Shown here: piece after piece, positions 3,580 to 55,431 of the stretch
Position numbering within the stretch: the stretch's first letter is position 1
Layout of the letters: each line of letters opens with the position of its first letter
Source of the DNA: Saprospiraceae bacterium
Lineage (GTDB): Bacteria; Bacteroidota; Bacteroidia; Chitinophagales; Saprospiraceae
Reading direction: 5' to 3'
Assembly (NCBI GenBank): GCA_020627535.1
Contig: JAHDGU010000001.1
Span: 164,670-228,669, forward strand
Length of the DNA stretch: 64,000 nucleotides
The notes under the pieces: model-generated
The model's input: the letters and a program-made list of their open reading frames with translations, nothing else
What the model was told of the DNA's origin: nothing
The model's database searches: none
Translations under genes and position numbers: made by a program

Positions 3580-3598
3580 CAACTACATGATGATGTGG
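3580..3598. promoter_or_regulatory. Dyad-symmetric box CAACTACATGATGATGTGG, candidate LuxR-type operator, 49 nt upstream of the beta-helix gene ATG
   Basis: Shares 17 nt with the box at 7136-7154 and its arms with the perfect palindrome at 3730-3747. Spacing and orientation relative to the downstream minus-strand start codon match the 7136 copy. Confidence 0.45.
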
Positions 3599-3645
3599 TG
3601 GTTGATGGTTCGTAGTTCAGAGTTCGTAGTTCAGAGTTCAGAGTT
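3595..3645. repeat. Degenerate heptanucleotide tandem array (7 units)
   Basis: GTGGTGG TTGATGG TTCGTAG TTCAGAG TTCGTAG TTCAGAG TTCAGAG. Includes an exact 14-mer CGTAGTTCAGAGTT twice (3611-3624, 3625-3638). Intergenic, between the divergent beta-helix and response-regulator genes. Confidence 0.8.
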
Positions 3646-3729
3646 TCTCCATGCCTGAAATACGTTGACCTTAATGGAAAATGGCTGATGAGACTTTGGA
3701 AAGAAACTCAATCACACAATCAGTCGCCG

Positions 3730-10073: not shown

Positions 10074-10991
10074 TTATCTATAGAGTTCGAAAATACTCGC
10101 ATCCACCCAGTACAGATCTTGATCACTCGTGTAAAAAAAGTACTTACCATCCGGTGTCACGTAAGGACATAGTTCATGCTTGCTTGTATTGATGAGAGGA
10201 CCCATCGAAACGGCTTCAGACCAGAGGCGATCTTCATTTCTGAAGCTGATGTAGAGATCGCCTTGACCAGAGCCATCTCTCCGTATCGAGCAAAATATGA
10301 GATATGATTCATCAGGTGCCACAAACACATCTGCCTCATACCGCGCTGTATTGATACTGTCGCTCAGTCTCTCAGGTTTTAAAAACTTGTGTCCGTCCCA
10401 CTGGGAGCGATAAATATCCATCGCATAGCTGGGAGCCTCAGGTGCTAGATCTCGAGACGAAAAGTATAGGCTGCCATCACTGGTAAAAGAGCTGTAGTAT
10501 TGGTCAAGATGATTGTTGATAGGAGCACCAAGATTGATGGGATCGGACCAGTGATCTCCTTCTCTGGTAGCGTACCATAGATCGATATCACTTTGCCCCT
10601 CCTTGGCTTCCTTTGGACGATTAGAGATGAAATATAGCCGATCTTCTTGAGGAGAGAGCATCGGGTCATTGTGCCCAAAATTTTCCAGAGCAAAAAGCTG
10701 AGTTTCTTCAGACCAACTGCCTTGAGAAAATCTCCGATGATATATTTCAGTCACACCGTTATTGTCTACGCCGAAGTAGAGGTCTTCTCCATTTTTCGAA
10801 ATGGTGCAGCCAAATTCATATCGATCAGGTAACGAGATGATTCCTGGGGCAAATATCATAGGGGTATCACGTGGAGCAATTTGACCTAAGTATTTTACCT
10901 TCTCTGTTTTGTTATTTTGCTGGACTTGATCTTGACAGCACAATGTTGCTATCATGCCTAGAATTAAAAGAAGGAATAGAGCAACTCTCAT
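10074..10991 (-). CDS. Secreted TolB-like PD40/WD40 beta-propeller repeat protein
   Basis: Signal peptide MRVALFLLLILGMIATLC. Repeated ...DxxPxxSPDGxxLYFxS...-type blades (DPMLSPQEDRLYFISNR, SSFTSDGSLYFSSRD, DVFVAPDESYLIFCS, CPYVTPDGKYFFYTSD). Confidence 0.7.
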   Translation of the reverse strand: MRVALFLLLILGMIATLCCQDQVQQNNKTEKVKYLGQIAPRDTPMIFAPGIISLPDRYEFGCTISKNGEDLYFGVDNNGVTEIYHRRFSQGSWSEETQLFALENFGHNDPMLSPQEDRLYFISNRPKEAKEGQSDIDLWYATREGDHWSDPINLGAPINNHLDQYYSSFTSDGSLYFSSRDLAPEAPSYAMDIYRSQWDGHKFLKPERLSDSINTARYEADVFVAPDESYLIFCSIRRDGSGQGDLYISFRNEDRLWSEAVSMGPLINTSKHELCPYVTPDGKYFFYTSDQDLYWVDASIFELYR

Positions 10992-11003: not shown

Positions 11004-12164
11004 TTATATTGCAGCAAAGCCCCTCTCCAAATCCTCAATAATCACCTTCACATCCTCCAGCCCAATACTCAAGCGATACAGATTCCAAGGATGCTGCTCC
11101 TCTGCTGGTGCAGACGCATCCCAGAAGGTCACCAGCGGTATGATCAAGGATTCATATCCTCCCCAGCTCACAGCAATCCGAATGTGCTCGAGGGCATCAG
11201 CAAATGCTTCTGCCTCCTCTCGCGTGCCTAGTTGAAGCTCAAAGCTGAAGAGTCCTGTGCTTCCAGACATTTGCTGGCAGGCGAGATCATACTGAGGATG
11301 AGAGGAATGTCCTAGATGGTGCACCGCAGATACCTTCTCATGAGATACAAGGTAGTCTACCACCTTCTCAGTTGTTTCTTGTATCCTTTTCATACGCACA
11401 GGCAAGGTCCTGAGTCCTCTCAGGATCAGACTCGCGTCATGAGGCGACATCACTGCACCAAATGTCATATAGCCCTTGTAGAAGATGTGATCAATGAGCT
11501 CCTTGGATCCCATCACTGCTCCAGCGACCACATCGCTATGACCTGCAATGTACTTGCTGATGCTATGCGTCACAAGATCCACGCCAAGCTCTGCAGGATT
11601 TTGGAAGAGTGGAGTAGCATAGCTATTATCGAGCGTAGTGAGAATGTCATTTTTTTTGGCCCAGTCACAGGCAGCCTTGATGTCTTGCAGATGGAAGTAC
11701 ATGCTATTGGGGCTCTCGAGGATCAGCATGCGTGTGTGATCAGTCTTCGCCGCCATGATTTCTTCCATAGATCGGCCATCGACGAAGCTATGGCTTACGC
11801 CAAAATCCTCAAGAATATTGATCAATAGCTTATTGGTCCATGAGTATGCTCCTTTGACACAAATCACATGGTCACCCGCCTTCAGAAAACTGCAAATCGT
11901 CGCACTGATCGCAGCGATTCCACTGCTGAAGACTAGACAGGACTCCGTCTTCTCCAGAGCGGCAAGTTTTTGACACAATAGCACCTGACTGGGATTGTTC
12001 CCTCTGGTGTAGAGTGTACTATCCGCTTCCGCTAAAAAAGCCAGTCGAAAACTCTCGACACTGTCAAAAGCAAAGTTGCTCGTCTGGTAGATTGGCGGTA
12101 CGATGCTGCCATACGGATCAAGTGCATTTTCCTTAGGATCAAAGAGGCCGGACATAAGATTCAT
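11004..12164 (-). CDS. PLP-dependent trans-sulfuration family enzyme (cystathionine beta-lyase / gamma-synthase / methionine gamma-lyase type)
   Basis: Cys/Met-metabolism PLP fold. Schiff-base lysine context THSISKYIAGHSDVVAG. YTRGNNPS near the N-terminus. Substrate specificity cannot be resolved by eye. Confidence 0.8.
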   Translation of the reverse strand: MNLMSGLFDPKENALDPYGSIVPPIYQTSNFAFDSVESFRLAFLAEADSTLYTRGNNPSQVLLCQKLAALEKTESCLVFSSGIAAISATICSFLKAGDHVICVKGAYSWTNKLLINILEDFGVSHSFVDGRSMEEIMAAKTDHTRMLILESPNSMYFHLQDIKAACDWAKKNDILTTLDNSYATPLFQNPAELGVDLVTHSISKYIAGHSDVVAGAVMGSKELIDHIFYKGYMTFGAVMSPHDASLILRGLRTLPVRMKRIQETTEKVVDYLVSHEKVSAVHHLGHSSHPQYDLACQQMSGSTGLFSFELQLGTREEAEAFADALEHIRIAVSWGGYESLIIPLVTFWDASAPAEEQHPWNLYRLSIGLEDVKVIIEDLERGFAAI

Positions 12165-12201
12165 ATTGTGGAACCTAAATCTAGCAGATTCTCAGGGAAG
12201 G

Positions 12202-12257
12202 GGTGTTGGTTGATAGTTAAGGGTTTCGTGAACCGAGGACCGTGAACCGTGGACCGA
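12202..12257. repeat. Degenerate heptanucleotide tandem array (8 units)
   Basis: GGTGTTG GTTGATA GTTAAGG GTTTCGT GAACCGA GGACCGT GAACCGT GGACCGA. Lies about 40 nt upstream of the start of the 11004-12164 gene. Confidence 0.75.
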
Positions 12258-12524
12258 AGTGATGTTTGCTGAGCGCGCCCGCCTGCCTTTGGTAGGTCTC
12301 GCTAGAGCTTTATGCGTCCTCGTACTGAGAAGGATGAACTGGAGTTGGAACTTGGGACAAACCGTTTCTCGAGTGAGCTAGTCAATCGATGCACAAATTC
12401 ATAAAAGCAATGAATCTCTGCAAAAGCCCTAGAATTCAACGAAGCCAAAGCCCAGCGTATAGCATGCAAGAGGTACGATCAAAAAGCTGCTCTGCGAACG
12501 AACAATCGTGGCACGAATAATAAA

Positions 12525-12594
12525 CAACTGTCACCTGTCAACTATCAACTGTCAACCGCTCGACGGTTTACGGTCCACGGTTCACGGTAAACCT
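12525..12594. repeat. Degenerate heptanucleotide tandem array (10 units)
   Basis: CAACTGT CACCTGT CAACTAT CAACTGT CAACCGC TCGACGG TTTACGG TCCACGG TTCACGG TAAACCT. Ends 3 nt before the GH9 stop codon (12598-12600). Confidence 0.8.
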
Positions 12595-12597
12595 CCC

Positions 12598-15294
12598 TCA
12601 CTCCACCTTCACGATCTTCTGCACACAAAGTGCACTATTGCCAGGGTCATACACCTTCACGAAGAACAATCCATTGCCCAGTAGTTCTGTATTGATATTG
12701 ACCTCTGTTCCTACATTGGGGAGCTCTTGGATGAGTGTACCACTCGCATCCAGTATTTGAAGTCGATATGATGGAAGATCTCCTTGGATCCTGAAGTAGT
12801 TGTCCACAGGATTGGGGAAGACTTCGATGCAGCTAATTGTCGCCTCTATCTGTCTCGAACTGGTAGCAACTTCACTGCAATCATAATCTCCACTGAGTGC
12901 ACCGTAGACGACAGCTGCTGTGACACTGTTTTGGTTGATGGTAAACTCGCCGGTGAGAGGACTTGGGCGCTGTTCGAAGAATCGCTCATGTCCTGGCCAC
13001 TCTTCGATGGCAGGATATACATTTTGATCAGGCCAGTGATGCTCCCAGGGACCGACATTGAAGAGTCCTCCACGTCTCCATGGACCATATGGTACAATAC
13101 CGGCTTTGATTTCGCCTTCTCCCGTAGCCCAGCTATCGAGATGCAGCAGACCTTGAGGGCTTTTTTCGCCGATACCAGTGATCCAAGTCATACCTAGAGG
13201 ATTGGTCCCGAGGAAGTAGTCTGCCGTAGTGTGTATGTACTTGAGGTAGTCAGCTGCCTTGGTAGGATCAGTGCCTTGCAGTATGGCGGACATAAACACT
13301 GCTTCCGCGACAAATGGCGTCGTGCCGTGCCCTACGAGCATAGGGAAGTAGTGGTTCCCTCCCCAGCGACAAGCGCGGAGATCAACATTGTCAAGAATAA
13401 GGAAATCCGCAGTCTGTATCATTTTGTCGCTGACGATCGTGCGTTGACTGGCATCTTGGTTGTCTGCATCGGTCATGAGGTAGATCAGAGCACCGTAGGC
13501 CTGCTCACCTTGGACATTTTCCCAAAACTCGAGCCCCGCCTGATCCCAGCTCTGCTCAAAATCTTGCTGATAGAAATCATTTTCTGTGAGTCTGTAGAGA
13601 GCCGCGGAGGCGAAGCTTCGCTGCCAGATCATCTCGTAGATATGACAAGCAAAGTCAGGGTCATATTGCGCATTGGCCCAGGCATATGCATCGATGGCTT
13701 CTTGCTCCCAGTCGATCTCCTCCGGATCAGTCCAGCCATTAGTCTCTAGGAGGTAGGCGATCTGCGCGGCCACGCCTGCGTAGTAGTAGCTCATGATCGG
13801 ATCAGGAGCGGATACGACCCAGATGCGATCTGTATCTTCCCAGCTGCCTCGGATAATATCATCATCGCCGAGATCGTAGCCCCAGAGATCACCAAATATC
13901 CGTCCACCTGGCACACCTCCTGTCGTGTAGCCTTTCTCCTCTGTTTCTTGCTTGAGATGATAGTAGAATCTCGGCAACCATCTCGCTTCATCAAAGACAT
14001 CTGGTAGTCCATTGCCACTCTCTGCGATCTGTAGCTGGCCATCGACGAAGTTGTCTCCGTACAACTCTAGCAGTATCAGTAGCTCCACAGGGACTTCCAT
14101 ATGTCTGATGTACGCGTCCCAGTCGCCAGCGTCCTGGTACCACCCAGCAGTCTCGATATCTCCGAGGATGCCAGCATCCCAAGTGGCCTTGTCATCCTCT
14201 GAGGCATCCTCGTCTGTCACATCGCAGATAGATACGTCACTATACTTCAGCTGCCCTGCAAATCCGGGTGTCACAGCAGGATTGTGTGGCGCTGGACGTG
14301 TGGCTTCCGTGTGCGGATGATCCAGAGCAATTCCACTGCGCTGATTGTAGAGGCCCTTCATCACCAGTTCGAATGCAGGCCTGAGACCATTGCAAGCAAG
14401 GTCAAACTCATGAGATCTGCCGATACCATCAACCACGAGGTAGTAGGATCCAGGCGTATTGTAAGCACTAAAATCACACTCGTATACCTCAGCACTATTG
14501 AAATTTTGATTCGGGGTTTCATCGCTATCATCGACAAATGTCTCTTGCGTCATCTCATCCTTGCGAAAAGTCAGATTTCCTGTGAAGACTGCATCGCCTG
14601 ATGTCGCATCGATAAGACGAAATTCATTGCCAGCGTAGCTGCTAAGATCCAACTTGCCGCCGTCTCCCATCCAATGATATACGTAGGCATACTTGAGCTC
14701 TGCATTGGTAGAGTAGGCTAGATTGTTGACGTGTATAGCAGGAGAAAGGAAGCTGTTTTCATCATATTTTAAGATCCATTCTGTCTGATCTGGACTGATG
14801 GCTTGATCTATGTTGATCTCGTAGGTCTTACCCGGTTCTAGTGCAATAGGTAGCTCCAGATACAGCCAGTGTTCCTTGGCATGATCAGGCTCTTGATTGG
14901 CACATCCCCAGACACCATAGTAGTCCAGGAGCTCCCAGCCTTGACACACATCTAGGAATTCTGTAGGCTTGCTTTTTCGCGAAAGCGATACTGGACTCTC
15001 CCCACTGCCATAAGCTGCATCATCAGGCGAACTGATCATGTAATTGTTGAGGTCTTCGGCAATGGGTATATCCAGCAGATCTACGAAGATCTCTCCACTA
15101 TTTTTAGGTTCACCGGCTTTGGGCTGTAACACATAGCCTTCATCGACATGGATCAAGAGGATCTTATCTGTGAGCATGGTCAGCTCCACCTCACTTTGGG
15201 CCATGATCTGGTCGGTCAGGCAGGTCAATAGGATAAGGACTAGAGCAGATTGTAGGACTTTCATTGTTGCAAATGATTTGAACTTCACTTGCAT
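12598..15294 (-). CDS. Secreted glycoside hydrolase family 9-like endoglucanase with a T9SS type-A C-terminal sorting domain
   Basis: Signal peptide (an alternative start at 15264 gives MKVLQSALVLILLTCLTDQIMAQ). N-terminal Ig-like region. GH9-type motifs AGWYQDAGDWDAY and ...GEFTINQNS.... The last approximately 80 aa, FPNPVDNYFRIQG...LFFVKVYD..., is a Por/T9SS tail. Confidence 0.7.
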   Translation of the reverse strand: MQVKFKSFATMKVLQSALVLILLTCLTDQIMAQSEVELTMLTDKILLIHVDEGYVLQPKAGEPKNSGEIFVDLLDIPIAEDLNNYMISSPDDAAYGSGESPVSLSRKSKPTEFLDVCQGWELLDYYGVWGCANQEPDHAKEHWLYLELPIALEPGKTYEINIDQAISPDQTEWILKYDENSFLSPAIHVNNLAYSTNAELKYAYVYHWMGDGGKLDLSSYAGNEFRLIDATSGDAVFTGNLTFRKDEMTQETFVDDSDETPNQNFNSAEVYECDFSAYNTPGSYYLVVDGIGRSHEFDLACNGLRPAFELVMKGLYNQRSGIALDHPHTEATRPAPHNPAVTPGFAGQLKYSDVSICDVTDEDASEDDKATWDAGILGDIETAGWYQDAGDWDAYIRHMEVPVELLILLELYGDNFVDGQLQIAESGNGLPDVFDEARWLPRFYYHLKQETEEKGYTTGGVPGGRIFGDLWGYDLGDDDIIRGSWEDTDRIWVVSAPDPIMSYYYAGVAAQIAYLLETNGWTDPEEIDWEQEAIDAYAWANAQYDPDFACHIYEMIWQRSFASAALYRLTENDFYQQDFEQSWDQAGLEFWENVQGEQAYGALIYLMTDADNQDASQRTIVSDKMIQTADFLILDNVDLRACRWGGNHYFPMLVGHGTTPFVAEAVFMSAILQGTDPTKAADYLKYIHTTADYFLGTNPLGMTWITGIGEKSPQGLLHLDSWATGEGEIKAGIVPYGPWRRGGLFNVGPWEHHWPDQNVYPAIEEWPGHERFFEQRPSPLTGEFTINQNSVTAAVVYGALSGDYDCSEVATSSRQIEATISCIEVFPNPVDNYFRIQGDLPSYRLQILDASGTLIQELPNVGTEVNINTELLGNGLFFVKVYDPGNSALCVQKIVKVE

Positions 15295-15406: not shown

Positions 15407-15958
15407 TTATTTTCCGTGATTCGCCTGCCAGTCTTTGACAATCTGTGGTGGCTCTTCTCCTTCCGCGACAAAGATGAGTGACGCAGAATTCATACAGTAT
15501 CTCAAGCCTGTGGGCTCTGGCCCATCTTTGAAGACATGCCCCAGATGAGATCCACTTCCGCTATCCACTACTTCTATCCTGACCATACCGTAGCTTTTAT
15601 CGACGACCTCGACTACGGCATCTTCCTCAATCGGCTCGTAAAAACTTGGCCAACCAGTACCTGAGCGAAATTTCGTCTCTGAGCTGAATAAGGGCTGACC
15701 AGTGGCAGCAGAGTAGTAAATGCCTTTCTTCTTATTGTCCCAATACTCACCTGTGAATGCACGCTCAGTACCATGCTTGCGCAAAATGTAAAACTGCTCA
15801 TCCGTCAGCTGTTGCTTCCACTCTTCATCCGTCTTTTGGACTGGGTAGTTTGTATGATCATCAGACGAAGTGCTTTTTGTCTGACAAGACACGGGTAAGA
15901 ATGCAAGACAAAGACCAAGAACCAGTGAAAATCTCATAATACGCTTGTTTGACATCAT
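15407..15958 (-). CDS. msrB: Peptide-methionine (R)-S-oxide reductase MsrB, exported/lipoprotein form
   Basis: [20 protein letters not shown] and [21 protein letters not shown] are MsrB hallmarks. The likely start is [26 protein letters not shown] (lipobox-like). The track ORF extends to 16039 through an unlikely N-terminal extension. Confidence 0.9.
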
Positions 15959-16057
15959 AATTCGAAAAACCAAGTTTTTGTTGTCCAGTCCCATGGTAGC
16001 ACCAAGACAAAGTCTCCAATCTATCCATGCTTCGGTCAACGTATTTCAGGTATGGAG

Positions 16058-16120
16058 AAACTATCAACTATCAACCAACAACCAACAACCAGTCCACGGT
16101 CTACGGTCCTCGGTTGACGA
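16058..16120. repeat. Degenerate heptanucleotide tandem array (9 units)
   Basis: AAACTAT CAACTAT CAACCAA CAACCAA CAACCAG TCCACGG TCTACGG TCCTCGG TTGACGA. Lies between the divergent msrB and tail-fibre-like genes. Confidence 0.8.
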
Positions 16121-16196
16121 AACCAAATACCGAACTCGGGGGATTGCGCCCATCTGATTCCACTCAGTTCTTTGCGTCATAAATCAAAGCTACACT

Positions 16197-18485: not shown

Positions 18486-18677
18486 GTGATACTTCTCGCG
18501 CGCGTTCCTTTTTTCTTGCTGTGCCTGTCTACCTCTGGCAGGCGCGTCCCCGCGCCAGCCACTGCGAGGCAAGTCCCTCATGTCAAGAGGGATTTAGGGA
18601 GTTCTCACTACACAGTTTTCAGCCAGCAAGGAACCCACCCAAACGCCCTCAAGAAAAAGGGCTTACACCAATTTTTC

Positions 18678-18765
18678 TATCAACGCCCAACTCCCAATCA
18701 GTCCTGAATTCACGGTCCACGGTTCTCGGTCCACGGCTCACGTCCTCGCTCTCCAGTCCACAGTC
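18678..18765. repeat. Degenerate heptanucleotide tandem array (about 12 units)
   Basis: ...TATCAAC GCCCAAC TCCCAAT CAGTCCT GAATTCA CGGTCCA CGGTTCT CGGTCCA CGGCTCA CGTCCTC GCTCTCC AGTCCAC AGTC. Lies in the convergent gap between the tail-fibre-like gene and the histidine kinase. Confidence 0.75.
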
Positions 18766-18804: not shown

Positions 18805-21800
18805 TCATTCATCCAAAGGCATTACTAGTCTTATACGATAACCATCTTCTCGGTCAATCTTCAGAGTGCCTCGGATCTGCTCAGCGCGCAAGCGCATATT
18901 GCTGATGCCGAGACCATCTGTGCTGAGAAGTTCGTGCTTGGAGCCATTGTCATGGACAGTATAGGATAGTCGAGGGCCTTCTGCTACTAGACGGATGGCT
19001 ACTGCATTTCCGTCTGAGTGCTTCTGGATGTTGGTGATGGCTTCTTTGTGGATGAGATAGAGCTGCTGCCGCAGGGTGGGGCTCATGCTTTTTGAGCTAT
19101 CGATACCTGTGACCTGAAAGTCTACGGCCCAGCGCTGTTCTGGCAGTCGCTTTTGGGCGAAAGCTCGCATCCGATCGATGAGATTCTCGTACTTGTCTTT
19201 GCGAGAATCTATGAGCCAAACGGTATCGCGCATCCTCTCCATCGCATCACGACTCATCTCATTCATCTCGGCGAGTGATTCCTTGTCTTCTTCTTTGGCC
19301 GTCATGCTCATGATCTCGGACTGCATGGCCAGACCTGATAAGATGCTACCTACATCATCATGCAGATCACTGCTGACTTTGACGCGCCACTGATTGAGCG
19401 CTTTTTCCTTATTCACTTTTGCGCGAAAGCGCGCATAAAATACACCAAATACGATCCCACAAGCAAGTAGCAAGCCCAGCGCCTGTACCCAGCGACGATG
19501 ATACCAGACTGCAGGTCGATAAAAATCAATATGATGCTCAGCGTACTGCTCACCCTGTGGATCTGCACTGGCTCTGAGATGCACAGTGAATGCCCCTGTA
19601 GGTAGTGAGATCAATTCCAGCTCCGATCTCGTATCGTATCGACTCCAGCTGCCTTCTTCGCCATTGAGACTGTAAGCGTACCAGCGATCGTCAGTGATGC
19701 TGGGAGAGCTGTACCTCATGGTCAAGAGTTCGTCAGATGGGAGTAGTTTGATGGGCTCAGTCCGAGACATGAGATCCGAAAATACACTGCGGTACTCATC
19801 GAACTTACTGTTGTAGATACTCACATTGTGCACAAATAGATCGGATATACTTTCCTTCGGCGAGGCAAAAGGCAATATATCTGGATTGATGCGGAAGAGC
19901 CCCTCTACGCTCCCAAGATACGTATGTCCATCGCTTGCGCTAAAATGTGCATTGCGATTATATTCTACTTGACTGAGAGGATGACCATCGGGAAGTCGCT
20001 CGATGAGACCAGTGTCCATGCGATAGATCAATAGTCCTTGCCCCGTACCAAGTAGCAGCCTAGAGTCTGCCAAAGGATGGATGAAATAAATGGCGTCGTG
20101 TACATCTTCACCGTCCTGCTTACGGGCAAATCCCGGCAGGAGCTCACCTTGATTTTCTCCTTCTCGGATGACAGCTAGGCCAAAGTGTGTACCGTAATAC
20201 AGATCACCTTTAGCTTGATGCAGGGAGGTGACAATCGTATTTTTTCTGGTCAGCCCTAAGTCCTCTCTGATCATTTGCTTGGTCATATGTCCACGACGAT
20301 CTAGCCAGTGGATCCCTCGCAGGTCTGTAGCTAGTATGAAGGCGCTCTCGCTTTGATCCTGATTGCGAATGAGTGCATTCCCTATGATCGGTTTGTCAAA
20401 GAGGGCTTCTTGGATAATGGTATCCCTCATACTCTCGAGCTGTGTCTTGAATATCCTGGCATTGCGATCATAGGTCCAGAGAGTGTCCTTTTCGTGGAGA
20501 TGAAGGCTCATAGACTTCTTGAGAGACCCAGGGAGGCGACTCAGCTGGAGGTCGCTGAGTCGATACCTGTAGTTGTCCCAGATGAGATGTGTCGCAGAAG
20601 TCGACAGGCTAAAGGCTTCATTGTAGGTGTTCTGAGGATTCAGACGCAGTGACCTAAAGCTCTCTGTGCCAGCTTCGCATACGCTGACATCGGTATAGTA
20701 GCTCACATATACATTTCCCTCGGAGTCCTCACATATCTGTCGCACGCTCGGATATGGCTCTGTCTGCGATACTGGAACTCGCCAGTCATCTAGAGAAGCT
20801 GCCACTGGCTCTGCCAGATATAAGGTACTATTGAAGACTAGAATGTAGGAATCAGCACCATAGCTGATGACCTGCTGCAAGGTCTCATTCCTTTTTTTGA
20901 GATCAAAGCGATCATTGAGTTCCGCGAGCTCAGATGTATAGTCCTCTGTGGTTTTTGTAGTGCTATTGTACAGCCAGACGCGCTGTTTGAAGTCACTGAG
21001 CCAGACCTCTTGTGGAAAAGTGAATGTGTTGTAGCTGCTTCCTTCAAATTCAGCGTTTTTGATCTCGATAGGTTTGACGATTTGGCGGATCGGATCTACA
21101 CTGAGGCTCTTTTCTTCGCTCGCGCGCATGATGTGCAAGCCGGGTTGATTGGTCAATTCAAAGCTGCCATAAGCTGGCAACGTCATCAGCTCGTTGCCCA
21201 TGCGATCTAGAGCGATCAAGGAGAGATCCTTGAAGATCCAAATAGTGTCCTGGAGGACTCTCGGTGGAGAGGAACTTCCAACTGGTAACTTCGTCTTGAA
21301 GAGTAGCGAGGTATCCTCAGTCATCTCATATACATGGCCAAGGTCGGACTTCCTATGACGGGCAATGAAATAGGATTTTCTTGTGGCAATATCCTGGCAC
21401 AAATAAAGCAGAGCGAATTTGTCCTCCAATCTTATTTCCTTCATCACCTGCCGTCGATCTGTGTCCCAAAGACAGAGCTTGTAGTGGAAGTTGATGTTGT
21501 CAAAGAAGATCAGCCATATCCTTGAGCTATCAAGGCCTGCCATCGACAAGAATCCATAGCCGTCTTGATTGATTTGCAAGGTGTCGCCTGCTGCCGTGAA
21601 GTTGTATCTCGTCGCTCGCTGACCGTCAAAGCAGATAAGATTTTCTTGTGCAGCATACCACAGGAAACCATGACGGTCCCAGTGTGGAGGATTGGACGAG
21701 ACGATCCAGAGACCTTCATCCTCAGGACTACTGAGTAGGCTGATATTATAACTGAGCTCTTCATCATTCTGCGCGTGTGCAATCTCTGGGATCAGAGACA

Positions 21801-31225: not shown

Positions 31226-32776
31226 ATGAACACACAACTGCTCATTCTCTTAGGAGGCGTCCTTTTTCTTTTCCTCCTCGTAGTTATCTTTTTTGTCAGC
31301 AGATACAAGAGATGTCCATCAGATAAAATTCTTGTAGTCTATGGGAAGACCGGAGGTCAGCAAAGCTCTAAGTGCTACGCTGGAGGCGCCAAGCTTGTAT
31401 GGCCAGTGATTCAAGACTACAAGTACTTGGACCTCACGCCTCTGAGTATAGATGTCAATCTGCAGGATGCTCTGTCCAAGCAGAATATCCGGGTAAGCGT
31501 GCCGTCGCAGTTCACAGTCGGTATCAGCACCAAACCGGATCTCATGCAAGCTGCTGCCGAAAGACTTCTCGGCCAAACGAGATCTGATATCTCTAGACTT
31601 GCTCACGATATCATCATGGGACAGATGAGACTCGTCATCGCCAATATGGATATCGAAGAACTCAATACTGATCGCGACAAATTTGTCCACAGTGTGTACG
31701 ATCATGTCGGTGCGGAGCTTCATAAGATCGGTCTGGATCTGATCAATGTCAATGTCACGGACATCCATGACGAATCTGGCTATATCTCAGCTCTCGGAAA
31801 GGAAGCTGCGGCAAAAGCCATCAATGATGCTAAGATCAAGGTCGCCAATGAGGTCAAGATCGGTAGTATCGGAGAAGCTCAAGCCGTACAGGAGCAGCGT
31901 ATCAAAGTCGCAGAAGCGAACACGCAGGCAGAAATTGGTGAAGCCAATGCCGAGCAAGAGCAACGTGTGCAGGTTGCTGGTGCCAATAGTCGAGCTGAAA
32001 TCGGTGAAGCTGATGCCCTGCAGAGCCAGCGTATCCAAGTCGCAGAAGCCAATTCCAAGGCAGAGATCGGAGAAGCAGACGCGAGAGCCAATGCTACGGA
32101 GGGTAAGAACTCTGCAGCCATCAAAATTGCCAACTCTGATGCTGCCCGCGATATTGAGATGGCAGAAGCACAGCGAAAGGCAACGGCTGCACGCAAAGTC
32201 GCTTCAGCAAAGGCGCTTGAGGAGGCCTACAAGGCAGAAGAAGCAGCTGAAGTTGCTCGAGGCTTGAAAGAAAAGGCAAAGCGTGAGGCCGATGAGGTCG
32301 TCATCGCAGACATCGAAAAGCAAAAGGCTGTGATTGCTGCACAGGCAGAAGCGCAGACGCAGAAGGAAATCGCAGAGGGAGAAGCTGCCGCGATCCTCGC
32401 CAAGTTCAAGGCACAAGCAGAGGGTACAGAAGAGCTGCTCCGTAAGCAGGCCGAAGGATTTTCCAAGCTCGTGGAAGCTGCAGGTGGAAGCGCCAAAGAT
32501 GCAGTAGGATTTCTGTTGATCGACAAGCTCACTGAGTTGGCGAGTATCCAGGTAGAGGCCATCAAGGAAGTAGACATCGACAAGGTTGTCGTCTATGACA
32601 ATGGATCTGGAAAGGGTGTCGGCAATTTTGTCCAGGGACTATACTCTATGATGCCACAGCTCAATGACTTCCTTAACCAGGCAGGGATGAGTCTGCCAGA
32701 TGGCTTGATCAAGCAAGCTGAAGAGGCAGAAGAGGACGAAGAGTCTGAGGCAAGTGCACAGACACAGCAAGGATAG
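31226..32776 (+). CDS. Flotillin (SPFH/band-7 domain protein, FloT/YuaG-like)
   Basis: N-terminal TM, SPFH domain (KILVVYGK...LSIDVNLQDALSKQNIRVSVPSQFTVGI), a long Glu/Ala-rich coiled-coil repeat region, and a C-terminal flotillin-like tail. Confidence 0.88.
   Translation: MNTQLLILLGGVLFLFLLVVIFFVSRYKRCPSDKILVVYGKTGGQQSSKCYAGGAKLVWPVIQDYKYLDLTPLSIDVNLQDALSKQNIRVSVPSQFTVGISTKPDLMQAAAERLLGQTRSDISRLAHDIIMGQMRLVIANMDIEELNTDRDKFVHSVYDHVGAELHKIGLDLINVNVTDIHDESGYISALGKEAAAKAINDAKIKVANEVKIGSIGEAQAVQEQRIKVAEANTQAEIGEANAEQEQRVQVAGANSRAEIGEADALQSQRIQVAEANSKAEIGEADARANATEGKNSAAIKIANSDAARDIEMAEAQRKATAARKVASAKALEEAYKAEEAAEVARGLKEKAKREADEVVIADIEKQKAVIAAQAEAQTQKEIAEGEAAAILAKFKAQAEGTEELLRKQAEGFSKLVEAAGGSAKDAVGFLLIDKLTELASIQVEAIKEVDIDKVVVYDNGSGKGVGNFVQGLYSMMPQLNDFLNQAGMSLPDGLIKQAEEAEEDEESEASAQTQQG
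31868..32095 (+). repeat. About 3.4 tandem 66-nt (22-aa) Glu/Ala repeats inside the flotillin gene
   Basis: IGEAQAVQEQRIKVAEANTQAE / IGEANAEQEQRVQVAGANSRAE / IGEADALQSQRIQVAEANSKAE / IGEADARANA... Confidence 0.85.
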
Positions 32777-54411: not shown

Positions 54412-55431
54412 ATGTATACAGATATACTCATATACGAAGAGAAGCACAAGAAGATCGCACGGGTGATCACTGGAATCATTGGCGTCCTCTTGTTGCTATT
54501 TCTTTTTTTGAGGATGATGAGTTATCCTGACCCTCCACTGGAGCAAGAAGGCGTACTTGTGAGTTTTGGGGAGCCAGACAAGGGTAGCGGTCAATCCATG
54601 CCAGATACGCAGCAAGATGAGCCAGTAGAAGAAACCGGTGCCGAAGAAGAGGAAGCCGAGGCAGAAGCTGTCGAAGAGGTCGTCGAAGAAGTGCCAGAAG
54701 AGACAGTAGAAGAAGTCGTTGAGGAAACTGTGGATGCCTCTCCTCCAGAAGAATCAACGCCTACAGAAAGCTCTGAAAAAGAAGTCGTGACCCAAGAAGA
54801 TCCGGCTGAGGTCGCTATGAAAAAAGCAGAGGAGGAAGCCAAGAAGCGAGCACAAGAACAAGCCGAGAAAGAAGCACGAGAAGAAGCAGAACGTGAGGCA
54901 AGAGAAGAGGCTGAGAAAAAAGCAGCCGAGGAAGCCAAGCGGAAAGCGGAGGCCGAAGCCAAGCGAAAGGCAGAAGAGGAGGCCAAGCGTAAAGCCGAAC
55001 AAGAGGCAAAGGAAAAAGCAGAGTACGATGCCAAAAAGAAGCAGTACGGAGATCTCTTTGGCGATGGTAAAGGCGAGACAGACACAGATGGTAATCAAGG
55101 AGACCCTAATGGAGATCCCAATAGCGATATCCTAGAAGGAATCAGCACTGGAAGTGGTAAAGTCGGTGGTGGGCTCTCTGACCGAGGACTCAAATATGAG
55201 CCAGAAGTCAGCGACAATACGCAGAAAACCGGTAAAGTTGTCATGAAAGTCTGTGTAGGTGCCAATGGCAAGGTGATCCCTTCAAGTGTGCAGTACACCC
55301 AGCGTGGTAGCACCACAACAGATTCTCACCTCATCGAGCTGGCCAGAAAGAACGCTCTCAAGTTTGAGTTTGATGGCAGCACGATTGACAAGCAGTGCGG
55401 GACAATTACCTTTGATTTCAAGGTGCAGTAG
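54412..55431 (+). CDS. TonB-like energy transducer with a long Glu/Lys/Ala-rich spacer
   Basis: N-terminal TM VITGIIGVLLLLFLFL. About 150 aa of spacer (EEAKRKAEAEAKRKAEEEAKRKAEQEAKEKAE). The C-terminal approximately 80 aa is a TonB_C-like beta domain (GKVVMKVCVGANGKV...GTITFDFKV). Follows exbB-exbD. Confidence 0.7.
   Translation: MYTDILIYEEKHKKIARVITGIIGVLLLLFLFLRMMSYPDPPLEQEGVLVSFGEPDKGSGQSMPDTQQDEPVEETGAEEEEAEAEAVEEVVEEVPEETVEEVVEETVDASPPEESTPTESSEKEVVTQEDPAEVAMKKAEEEAKKRAQEQAEKEAREEAEREAREEAEKKAAEEAKRKAEAEAKRKAEEEAKRKAEQEAKEKAEYDAKKKQYGDLFGDGKGETDTDGNQGDPNGDPNSDILEGISTGSGKVGGGLSDRGLKYEPEVSDNTQKTGKVVMKVCVGANGKVIPSSVQYTQRGSTTTDSHLIELARKNALKFEFDGSTIDKQCGTITFDFKVQ

Follow-up and report, generated by a model that had tools for sequence, protein, structure and literature searches.

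Tandem arrays of heptanucleotides are found between genes in several groups of bacteria. The short tandemly repeated repetitive (STRR) heptamers of cyanobacteria were reportedly described by Mazel et al. in 1990, and the units of STRR1-3 read CCCCAGT, TTGGTCA and CAACAGT. Two arrays of this class flank a gene-free gap of 433 bp, at positions 12165-12597 of a 64-kb stretch from the genome of a Saprospiraceae bacterium (contig JAHDGU010000001.1), which was analysed over its whole length and is called the window below. In our reading, to which we give a probability of about 0.7, the gap is a unique lineage-specific spacer, flanked by two oppositely oriented members of a dispersed family of heptanucleotide arrays.

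Reports of heptamer arrays date back to 1990 for cyanobacteria, and Xanthomonas, Geobacter, Beggiatoaceae and a few Bacteroidetes were added later (PMC4692102, PMC2700814, PMC4679880). Bacterial simple sequence repeats over-represent heptamers, and one idea links the excess to polymerase slippage (PMC4692102). GGGAATC arrays form 70-75 convergent inverted pairs in each of two Xanthomonas genomes, and the arrays are largely transcribed (Rehm et al. 2015, PMC4692102). Arrays of TAACTGA are known from Beggiatoaceae, Cyanobacteria and five Bacteroidetes, where they are located upstream of gene starts or after stops (MacGregor 2015, PMC4679880). Geobacter metallireducens features 49 elements made of four GGACCGG heptamers, one of them beside transsulfuration genes (Aklujkar et al. 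2009, PMC2700814). The sources on Xanthomonas, on Beggiatoaceae, cyanobacteria and Bacteroidetes, and on Geobacter assign no proven function to heptamer arrays. A search of the literature with the TYCACGG heptamer as a word returned irrelevant primer matches only.

Heptamer arrays at the ends of the gap

The gap extends from the stop codon of a gene encoding a glycoside hydrolase of family 9 (GH9) to the start codon of a gene encoding a pyridoxal phosphate (PLP) enzyme, both on the - strand, and the limits assigned to it in a first-pass annotation of the window were borne out. The same annotation had placed heptamer arrays at both ends of the gap and an exact inverted repeat of 18 bp within them, and both features are present. 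The arms, ACCGTGAACCGTGGACCG at 12239-12256 and CGGTCCACGGTTCACGGT at 12571-12588, are separated by 314 nt and are contained in period-7 arrays found by Tandem Repeats Finder (TRF) as well as by a scan of repeat periods. TRF reports three period-7 rows, at 12227-12256, 12525-12556 and 12563-12588, each of 3.7-4.6 copies, and the period scan places the gap arrays at 12226-12260 and 12522-12593. The left compound array, 12202-12260, stops 38 nt upstream of the PLP-enzyme start codon, and 4 nt are found between the end of the right compound array, 12522-12593, and the GH9 stop codon. The arms can be aligned also in a second register, in which 30 nt (12227-12256 and 12557-12586) are complementary at 87%; it is shifted by 14 nt, corresponding to two heptamers.

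Comparison within the same genome covered the window and 3.6 kb beyond its left end, about 68 kb in all. In the period scan, 7 is the only non-codon period yielding arrays in the window. Five arrays were found (3596-3649, 12226-12260, 12522-12593, 16054-16119, 18708-18742), and all five fall in the intergenic DNA, which makes up 8.4% of the window. A sixth, compound array, GACCACGGTCATCGGTCATCGGTCCACGAAACC-ATCAACTGTCAACTGTC, is located 3.5 kb beyond the left end, at 20104-20183 of the Logan contig L146, with heptamer repeats at 20104-20160. Taken together, the six arrays, some of them compound, feature the unit types TYCACGG, CAACTRT, AACCAAC and AGTTCAG. They are mosaics of sub-arrays of the CAACTRT, AACCAAC and TYCACGG types, and the punctuation (G/T)AAACC recurs after the TYCACGG block. 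The right compound array (12525-12593) aligns to 16058-16124 over 68 nt with a score of 55, the maximum obtained with shuffled sequences being 31. The left-arm region 12222-12254 is identical at 30 of 33 positions to the reverse complement of 16092-16124, and 12203-12218, in the left array, matches 3595-3610. When the gap was compared to the window by BLAST, arrays turned out to be all that the gaps have in common. Most members of the family are unpaired, and the same arrays stand unpaired in three other gaps. A head-to-tail period of 7 nt with at least three units, a non-coding location and several unit types, dispersed and juxtaposed over the 68 kb, assign the gap arrays to the known class of intergenic heptanucleotide arrays, which includes the cyanobacterial STRRs and the arrays of Xanthomonas, Geobacter, Beggiatoaceae and some Bacteroidetes.

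The feature is real and exceeds chance. By simple arithmetic, an exact 18-mer inverted repeat is expected about 1e-6 times within 433 nt. The exact 18-mer corresponds to the double unit TCCACGG-TTCACGG, common to both arrays. Because two members of one array family sit there in opposite orientation, the exact inverted repeat is an expected by-product of their presence. In simulated arrays drawn from the pool of ACGG-type units of this genome, 3.9% of the pairs share a run of at least 18 nt; the exact runs in the other nine real pairs of arrays measure 8-14 nt. According to TRF, 14-nt double units match each other at 93-100% and period-7 units at 74-84%, and the high identity of the double units is the pattern that recent slipped-strand duplication of two-heptad units suggests. 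Arrays would thus lengthen as strand slippage duplicates units of 7 and 14 nt. Whole arrays may also have spread, or have been copied, between intergenic sites by some route, because other loci show the same order of sub-arrays and the same GAAACC punctuation. An exact inverted repeat that falls inside tandem arrays should be given no weight, except where the intervening sequence is repeated too.

Table 1. Coordinates of the gap, of its arrays and arms, and of related features in the window
Feature	Position	Strand	Notes
Whole gene-free gap	12165-12597	.	GH9 stop to PLP-enzyme start; identical in three Logan assemblies
Cys_Met_Meta_PP gene, Cys/Met-metabolism PLP enzyme	11004-12164	-	downstream neighbour; start adjoins gap
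GH9 glycoside hydrolase gene	12598-15294	-	upstream neighbour; stop adjoins gap
Left compound heptamer array	12202-12260	-	on the - strand (TCCACGG TTCACGG TCCTCGG TTCACGA)-AACCC-TTAACTATCAACCAACACC
Right compound heptamer array	12522-12593	+	(CAACTGT CACCTGT CAACTAT CAACTGT)-(TCGACGG TTTACGG TCCACGG TTCACGG)-TAAACC
Left arm, exact 18-nt inverted repeat	12239-12256	+	inverted-repeat search
Right arm, exact 18-nt inverted repeat	12571-12588	+	inverted-repeat search
Left arm, alternative 30-nt register	12227-12256	+	87% complementary; thermodynamically preferred pairing
Right arm, alternative 30-nt register	12557-12586	+	partner of 12227-12256
Small local hairpin inside right array	12565-12593	.	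10-nt arms at 90%, 9-nt loop; just past GH9 stop; without T-run
Unique 261-nt core	12261-12521	.	neither genes nor RNA families, excess folding or further copies detected
Sister compound array	16054-16124	+	same sub-array order, same GAAACC end; divergent msrB / 16197 promoter region
Sister ACGG-type array, unpaired	18708-18742	+	gap between convergent genes
Sister array of other heptamers (TCTGAAC / TACGAAC)	3596-3649	-	upstream of PMP-repeat gene

The core between the two arrays was found only once: neither the rest of the window nor the adjoining 3.6 kb, nor about 2 Mb of other loci that were fetched, contains a second copy. Distant blastn searches of the gap against plasmid and phage collections gave no match. 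Rfam 15 detects nothing at the gathering score in the window, and in permissive mode only matches with E = 1.3-5.3. The core alone folds like shuffled sequences (z = -0.01 and +0.25 for the two strands). Whole-gap folding yields z = -2.9 for the - strand and z = -1.95 for the + strand, and the arms therefore supply all the excess folding. The structured RNA entertained in the first-pass annotation as one explanation of the gap thus finds no counterpart in the core. A likeness between the GC-rich stretch 12268-12300 and the reverse complement of 18527-18559, also pointed out there and suspected to be fortuitous, is due to chance: its score is 18, the shuffle mean is 17.6, and 229 of 500 shuffles score as well.

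Open reading frames (ORFs) in the gap had been estimated not to exceed about 41 codons. The longest mechanical ORF measures 55 codons (12302-12469, - strand, TTG start), and further ORFs of 40-43 codons are found; Pfam searches with three small ORFs of the gap gave no match. Support for the 55-aa ORF as a gene was not found: an exhaustive search returned two matches, both rejected as artefacts, in which translations of tandem-repeat DNA are matched in 12-13 stretches. These two entries of a representative protein library, P0140 and P0141 (775 and 872 aa), correspond to long tandem repeats of DNA in translation, and 12-13 summed weak stretches produce for the non-coding ORF inflated E-values of 2e-17 and 1e-8. 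Entries of this type are a pitfall when small ORFs are searched.

The five arrays of the window are all located within its first 19 kb; the other 45 kb features 12 intergenic gaps of at least 100 bp, all of them without arrays. Genes for two HisKA_3 kinases, for regulators of the GerE type and for several proteins that are secreted or carry signals of the type IX secretion system (T9SS) are found in the first 19 kb, which is rearranged in comparison to the nearest relatives. A close paralog of the TPR-HisKA_3 kinase was sought and not found. A motif of 29 nt, GGTCAACGTATTTCAGGYATGGAGAAACT, occurs twice, at 16034-16062 (+) and 3642-3670 (-), with 0 occurrences expected by chance. Each copy directly precedes a heptamer array, and the unit sequences of the two arrays are quite different. 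The two divergent promoter regions hosting the motif share additional blocks, CAAAGTCTC upstream and GATTCCA...CTTTG downstream. Paralogy was considered as the reason for the shared upstream motif and rejected, the downstream proteins (a 762-aa Peptidase_S74 protein and a 1353-aa PMP-repeat protein) being unrelated. A scan of JGI metagenomes with the 29-nt motif, and a metagenome scan with the array end, gave no match. The Logan contig carrying the sixth array stops 20-40 nt past it, an indication that such heptamer repeats interrupt assemblies. Tandem repeats within coding regions of the window are of different kinds: a 66-nt unit is present in 3.2 copies at 31868-32076, in a Band_7/SPFH gene (31226-32776), and Lys/Glu-rich 24/48-nt repeats are found at 54819-55034, in the gene (54412-55431) of a 339-aa protein without Pfam match.

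Relatives, and predicted transcription and pairing

The GH9 gene product is a protein of 898 aa in which CelD_N and GH9 domains are followed by a Por_Secre_tail, the C-terminal sorting domain of the T9SS. A cyanobacterial origin of the window, which the STRR-like heptamers had at first suggested, was rejected: the sorting domain, and best matches bearing the names Saprospiraceae, Chitinophagales or Bacteroidota, assign the window to an uncultured lineage of Bacteroidota. The lineage is isolated. Once the identical protein (NCBI, Logan) is set aside, the best homologs of the PLP enzyme are 64% identical, and the best one in a set of species-representative genomes is 48% identical. Logan assemblies of three runs (SRR14415273, SRR14415274 and SRR14415275; loci L001, L145, L146 and L147) are 100% identical to the window.

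In the nearest syntenic relative, L085 (GCA_020630495.1), the genes encoding tyrosyl-tRNA synthetase (TyrRS), GH9 and the PLP enzyme are followed by an M36 peptidase gene on the opposite strand. The L085 orthologs are 53% identical for GH9, up to the last residue, and 64% identical for the PLP enzyme, and between the GH9 stop and the PLP start there are 64 bp, without arrays. In a second relative (L082-L084) the TyrRS gene is immediately upstream of the PLP gene. No heptamer arrays were found in L082-L085. Because the L085 orthologs are only 64 bp apart and lack arrays, the gap is a lineage-specific expansion, in which spacer and arrays account for an addition of about 370 bp. To judge from gene order, the neighbourhood is rearranged as well as the gap. 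In comparison to L082-L085, an extra PD40 gene (10074-10991) intervenes between the genes of the PLP enzyme and the M36 peptidase, and msrB (15407-15994), not tyrS, is located upstream of GH9.

Intergenic DNA hosts 13 of the 30 sites of the Bacteroidota -7 box TAnnTTTG in the window, which corresponds to an enrichment of about five-fold. No such box, and no terminator-like site, was detected in the gap. Because the gap lacks both, and the spacing in the relative is of 64 bp, the GH9 and PLP genes are probably co-transcribed. The same observations suggest that the whole co-directional msrB-GH9-PLP-PD40 string may be transcribed together, and the spacer would then be an expanded intercistronic region within it. 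A TAnnTTTG box is present at 16185-16192 (-), upstream of msrB. If this box is used, the array at 16054-16124, read in antisense, falls in the 5' untranslated region (UTR) of msrB.

A long-range stem across the gap, proposed in the first pass from the inverted repeat, is robustly predicted, as indicated by the folding scores of the whole gap and by a total pairing probability of the arms close to 1 in a predicted read-through RNA of 933 nt. In this RNA the 30-bp register shifted by 14 nt prevails (about 0.88) over the exact 18-bp register (about 0.12), and the energy of the arm duplex is about -52 kcal/mol. The 16092-16124 array is in turn complementary to the PLP-proximal array, and the two would form a duplex of -62.8 kcal/mol if both are present in one transcript. 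In a GH9-PLP RNA the arms would form an imperfect duplex of 30-40 bp around a loop that measures about 300 nt. Duplexes of such length are classical substrates of RNase III. The duplex could accordingly be cut by this enzyme, or serve as a stability or insulation element. Cruciform extrusion of the two arms in DNA was judged unlikely, given the spacer of 300 nt.

Alternative explanations of the gap

Several observations weigh against a spacer flanked by ordinary members of the family. The two neighbouring arrays have the longest exact match among the 10 pairs of arrays, 18 nt versus 8-14 nt (p about 0.04 for this particular pair), a mild hint of a common recent origin or of selection for pairing. 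The L085 relative is distant (53-64% amino-acid identity), its DNA is not alignable, and its 64-bp gap does not qualify as an empty-site allele in the strict sense. The case for co-transcription is built on missing motifs and on the same distant relative. The search for copies of the core covered about 68 kb of this genome, and copies may be found elsewhere in it. Lastly, the strain polymorphism that would reveal slippage was not seen, the three runs being 100% identical.

Within a polycistronic RNA the arm duplex may be functional, or the heptads may serve as protein-binding sites, but both views are unsupported. According to the first of these views the arrays are kept complementary by selection, as a site of RNase III processing or as an element of stability or insulation that uncouples the cistrons. 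The energy of the duplex, its pairing probability in the read-through RNA, the lack of promoter box and terminator in the gap and the longest exact match residing in the adjacent pair would all fit, as would the second complementary array in the msrB 5' UTR, if the 16185-16192 box is used. Oppositely oriented arrays are, however, complementary automatically, and for most members of the family a partner in the same gap is lacking. Homologous loci suitable for the analysis of covariation were sought, and none was found. We consider a selected stem unlikely.

The compound arrays may also be regarded, not as passive products of slippage, but as very small dispersed cassettes with conserved punctuation, copied between intergenic sites and acting together as regulator sites or as RNA modules. 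The GAGAAAC and ACGAAACC boundaries, together with the 29-nt motif shared by two loci, would represent the punctuation. Cassettes might act in one of two ways. Regulators could bind them heptad by heptad, defining a local regulon of T9SS-secreted proteins; alternatively, complementary RNA modules in long operon transcripts, forming the duplexes of -63 and -52 kcal/mol, could direct processing. If such cassettes exist, the occurrence of the TYCACGG heptad in 59 unrelated viral contigs, described below, would point to a widely shared factor able to recognise heptads. Taken as a whole this reading is speculative, and we regard it as rather unlikely.

Heptads acting on DNA as operators, with one dimer of a small protein per heptad binding cooperatively and controlling the adjoining genes for secreted proteins, have precedents. 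The omega repressor of pSM19035, a ribbon-helix-helix protein encoded nearby, binds WATCACW heptads, and regulators of the NarL/LuxR type recognise heptameric sites. Contiguous heptads found here, TATCAAC, TGTCACC and GGTTCAC, resemble in part the WATCACW consensus and may provide a lead. Only 38-72 nt are found between the ends of the arrays 3596-3649, 12202-12260 and 16054-16124 and the start codons downstream, and all three arrays have the same orientation with respect to their gene. The 19 kb bearing the arrays encodes two HisKA_3 kinases, two regulators with Response_reg and GerE domains and a GerE protein of 77 aa. Two arrays, 12522-12593 and 18708-18742, are located instead at the 3' ends of genes, the latter between convergent genes. 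The unit sequences are moreover very heterogeneous, and arrays like these are found across many phyla with no such genes nearby. Operator function looks improbable.

The first-pass annotation had also likened the gap to an insertion of the miniature inverted-repeat transposable element (MITE) type. This would be a non-autonomous element of about 350-390 bp, with heptamers as terminal inverted repeats, inserted between the GH9 and PLP genes. The segment of about 370 bp that the syntenic relative lacks is indeed bounded by an inverted repeat (exact over 18 nt, 87% over 30 nt), and the longest exact run among pairs of arrays is found in the neighbouring ones. Terminal repeats of a transposon are, however, expected to be defined, and the arms are internally repetitive, pair in two competing registers and are ordinary array members, found unpaired in three other gaps. 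Inspection of the flanks revealed no direct repeat immediately outside either register, and hence no target-site duplication; the core has no further copy in the window, in the 3.6 kb beyond or in the fetched loci, nor does it match plasmid and phage collections. The likeness was thus not upheld, and an insertion of this kind is quite improbable. There is no evidence that the arms are transposon termini, or that the core is a structured RNA gene. A small gene or small RNA in the core, missed by annotation and making the arrays irrelevant, is most improbable: the 55-codon ORF and those of 40-43 codons would speak for it, but Pfam gives no match, database matches are tandem-repeat artefacts, -7 box and terminator are missing, the fold z is about 0 and Rfam E-values exceed 1.

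Comparison with known heptamer arrays

Heptamer arrays are not confined to this genome. Unrelated bacterial loci totalling 1.42 Mb, originally fetched for another purpose, contain 25 arrays of period 7, against 11 at most for any other period, with examples in Bacteroidota metagenome-assembled genomes (MAGs), Herpetosiphon, Dehalococcoidia, Acidobacteriota and Gemmatimonadales. Tight inverted pairs of heptamer arrays, forming hairpins with short loops, were noted in unrelated bacteria and viral contigs (L009 13147-13234, L055 3868-3937, L137 2712-2821, L133 131-231), as exemplified by (GATTTCG)4...(CGAAATC)4 in a groundwater Bacteroidetes MAG. The pattern CACGGTYYWCGGTYYWCGGT, which represents TYCACGG arrays, is present in 59 IMG/VR contigs (L086-L144) of very different composition. 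These arrays are mostly unpaired, and inverted pairs about 60 nt apart were seen in two cases. They are often located beside arrays of other heptamers (GAACCC, GGGGATC, CTGGGAG, TGGTCAG), and in at least six loci (L086, L090, L099/L120, L109, L111, L134) the TYCACGG array is followed by CGGTAGGTTT or GGTAGGTTT.

The gap arrays resemble cyanobacterial STRRs, since several heptamer families coexist in the genome in intergenic position, and mixed arrays are often found side by side. Unit sequences and phylum differ. By strict unit sequence the arrays do not correspond to STRR1-3, the nearest unit found here being CAACTGT, against CAACAGT. Sequences of the repetitive extragenic palindromic (REP), bacterial interspersed mosaic element (BIME) and REPIN type, as well as MITEs, are similarly intergenic, feature inverted repeats and have hairpin potential. 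The gap arrays are distinguished from MITEs and REPINs by the lack of a repeated core, of a target-site duplication and of a palindromic unit among the sequences searched. The arms, moreover, consist of direct repeats in tandem, and the spacer exceeds by far that of REPINs. The REP/BIME/REPIN group is characterized by imperfect palindromes of 20-40 nt, with a short spacer between inverted doublets. The organization in direct repeats, a sole local hairpin with arms of 10 nt, and main arms set 300-314 nt apart place the arrays outside the REP/BIME/REPIN group.

Like the gap arrays, the GGGAATC arrays of Xanthomonas (PMC4692102) consist of degenerate 7-nt units in tandem and are dispersed between genes. 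Many of them are paired on opposite strands at short distance and are able to form stem-loops (PMC4692102), and the gap arrays are likewise oppositely oriented. Xanthomonas units are G-rich and form quadruplexes, whereas the units TYCACGG, CAACTRT and AACCAAC are found here, in a Bacteroidota MAG; Xanthomonas pairs are in 'close proximity', whereas the arms described here are about 300 nt apart. TAACTGA arrays are found in 'forward' orientation before start codons and in reverse orientation after stop codons, and are mixed with other heptamers in Bacteroidetes (PMC4679880). The arrays of the window share these features, but their units are AACTGTC and AACTATC, and their ends are 38-72 nt from the start codon, not a few nt as in TAACTGA arrays. 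The GGACCGG unit of Geobacter is nearly the same as GGACCGT and GAACCGT found here, and one copy of the Geobacter element is close to genes for Cys/Met PLP enzymes (PMC2700814). The Geobacter element differs in that it has a fixed number of four units, is found also within genes and has been proposed to be a regulatory RNA (PMC2700814). The likeness of the units, judged from their letters, may be a coincidence.

By itself the locus reveals no new kind of element. It offers a test case for the action of heptamer arrays in RNA, through processing or insulation, as opposed to DNA, through a heptad-binding protein. The compound arrays share ordered sub-arrays and boundary motifs across loci, and feature one strong predicted long-range pairing. 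To the known hosts of heptamer arrays they add a deep-branching, uncultured lineage of Saprospiraceae-like Bacteroidota.

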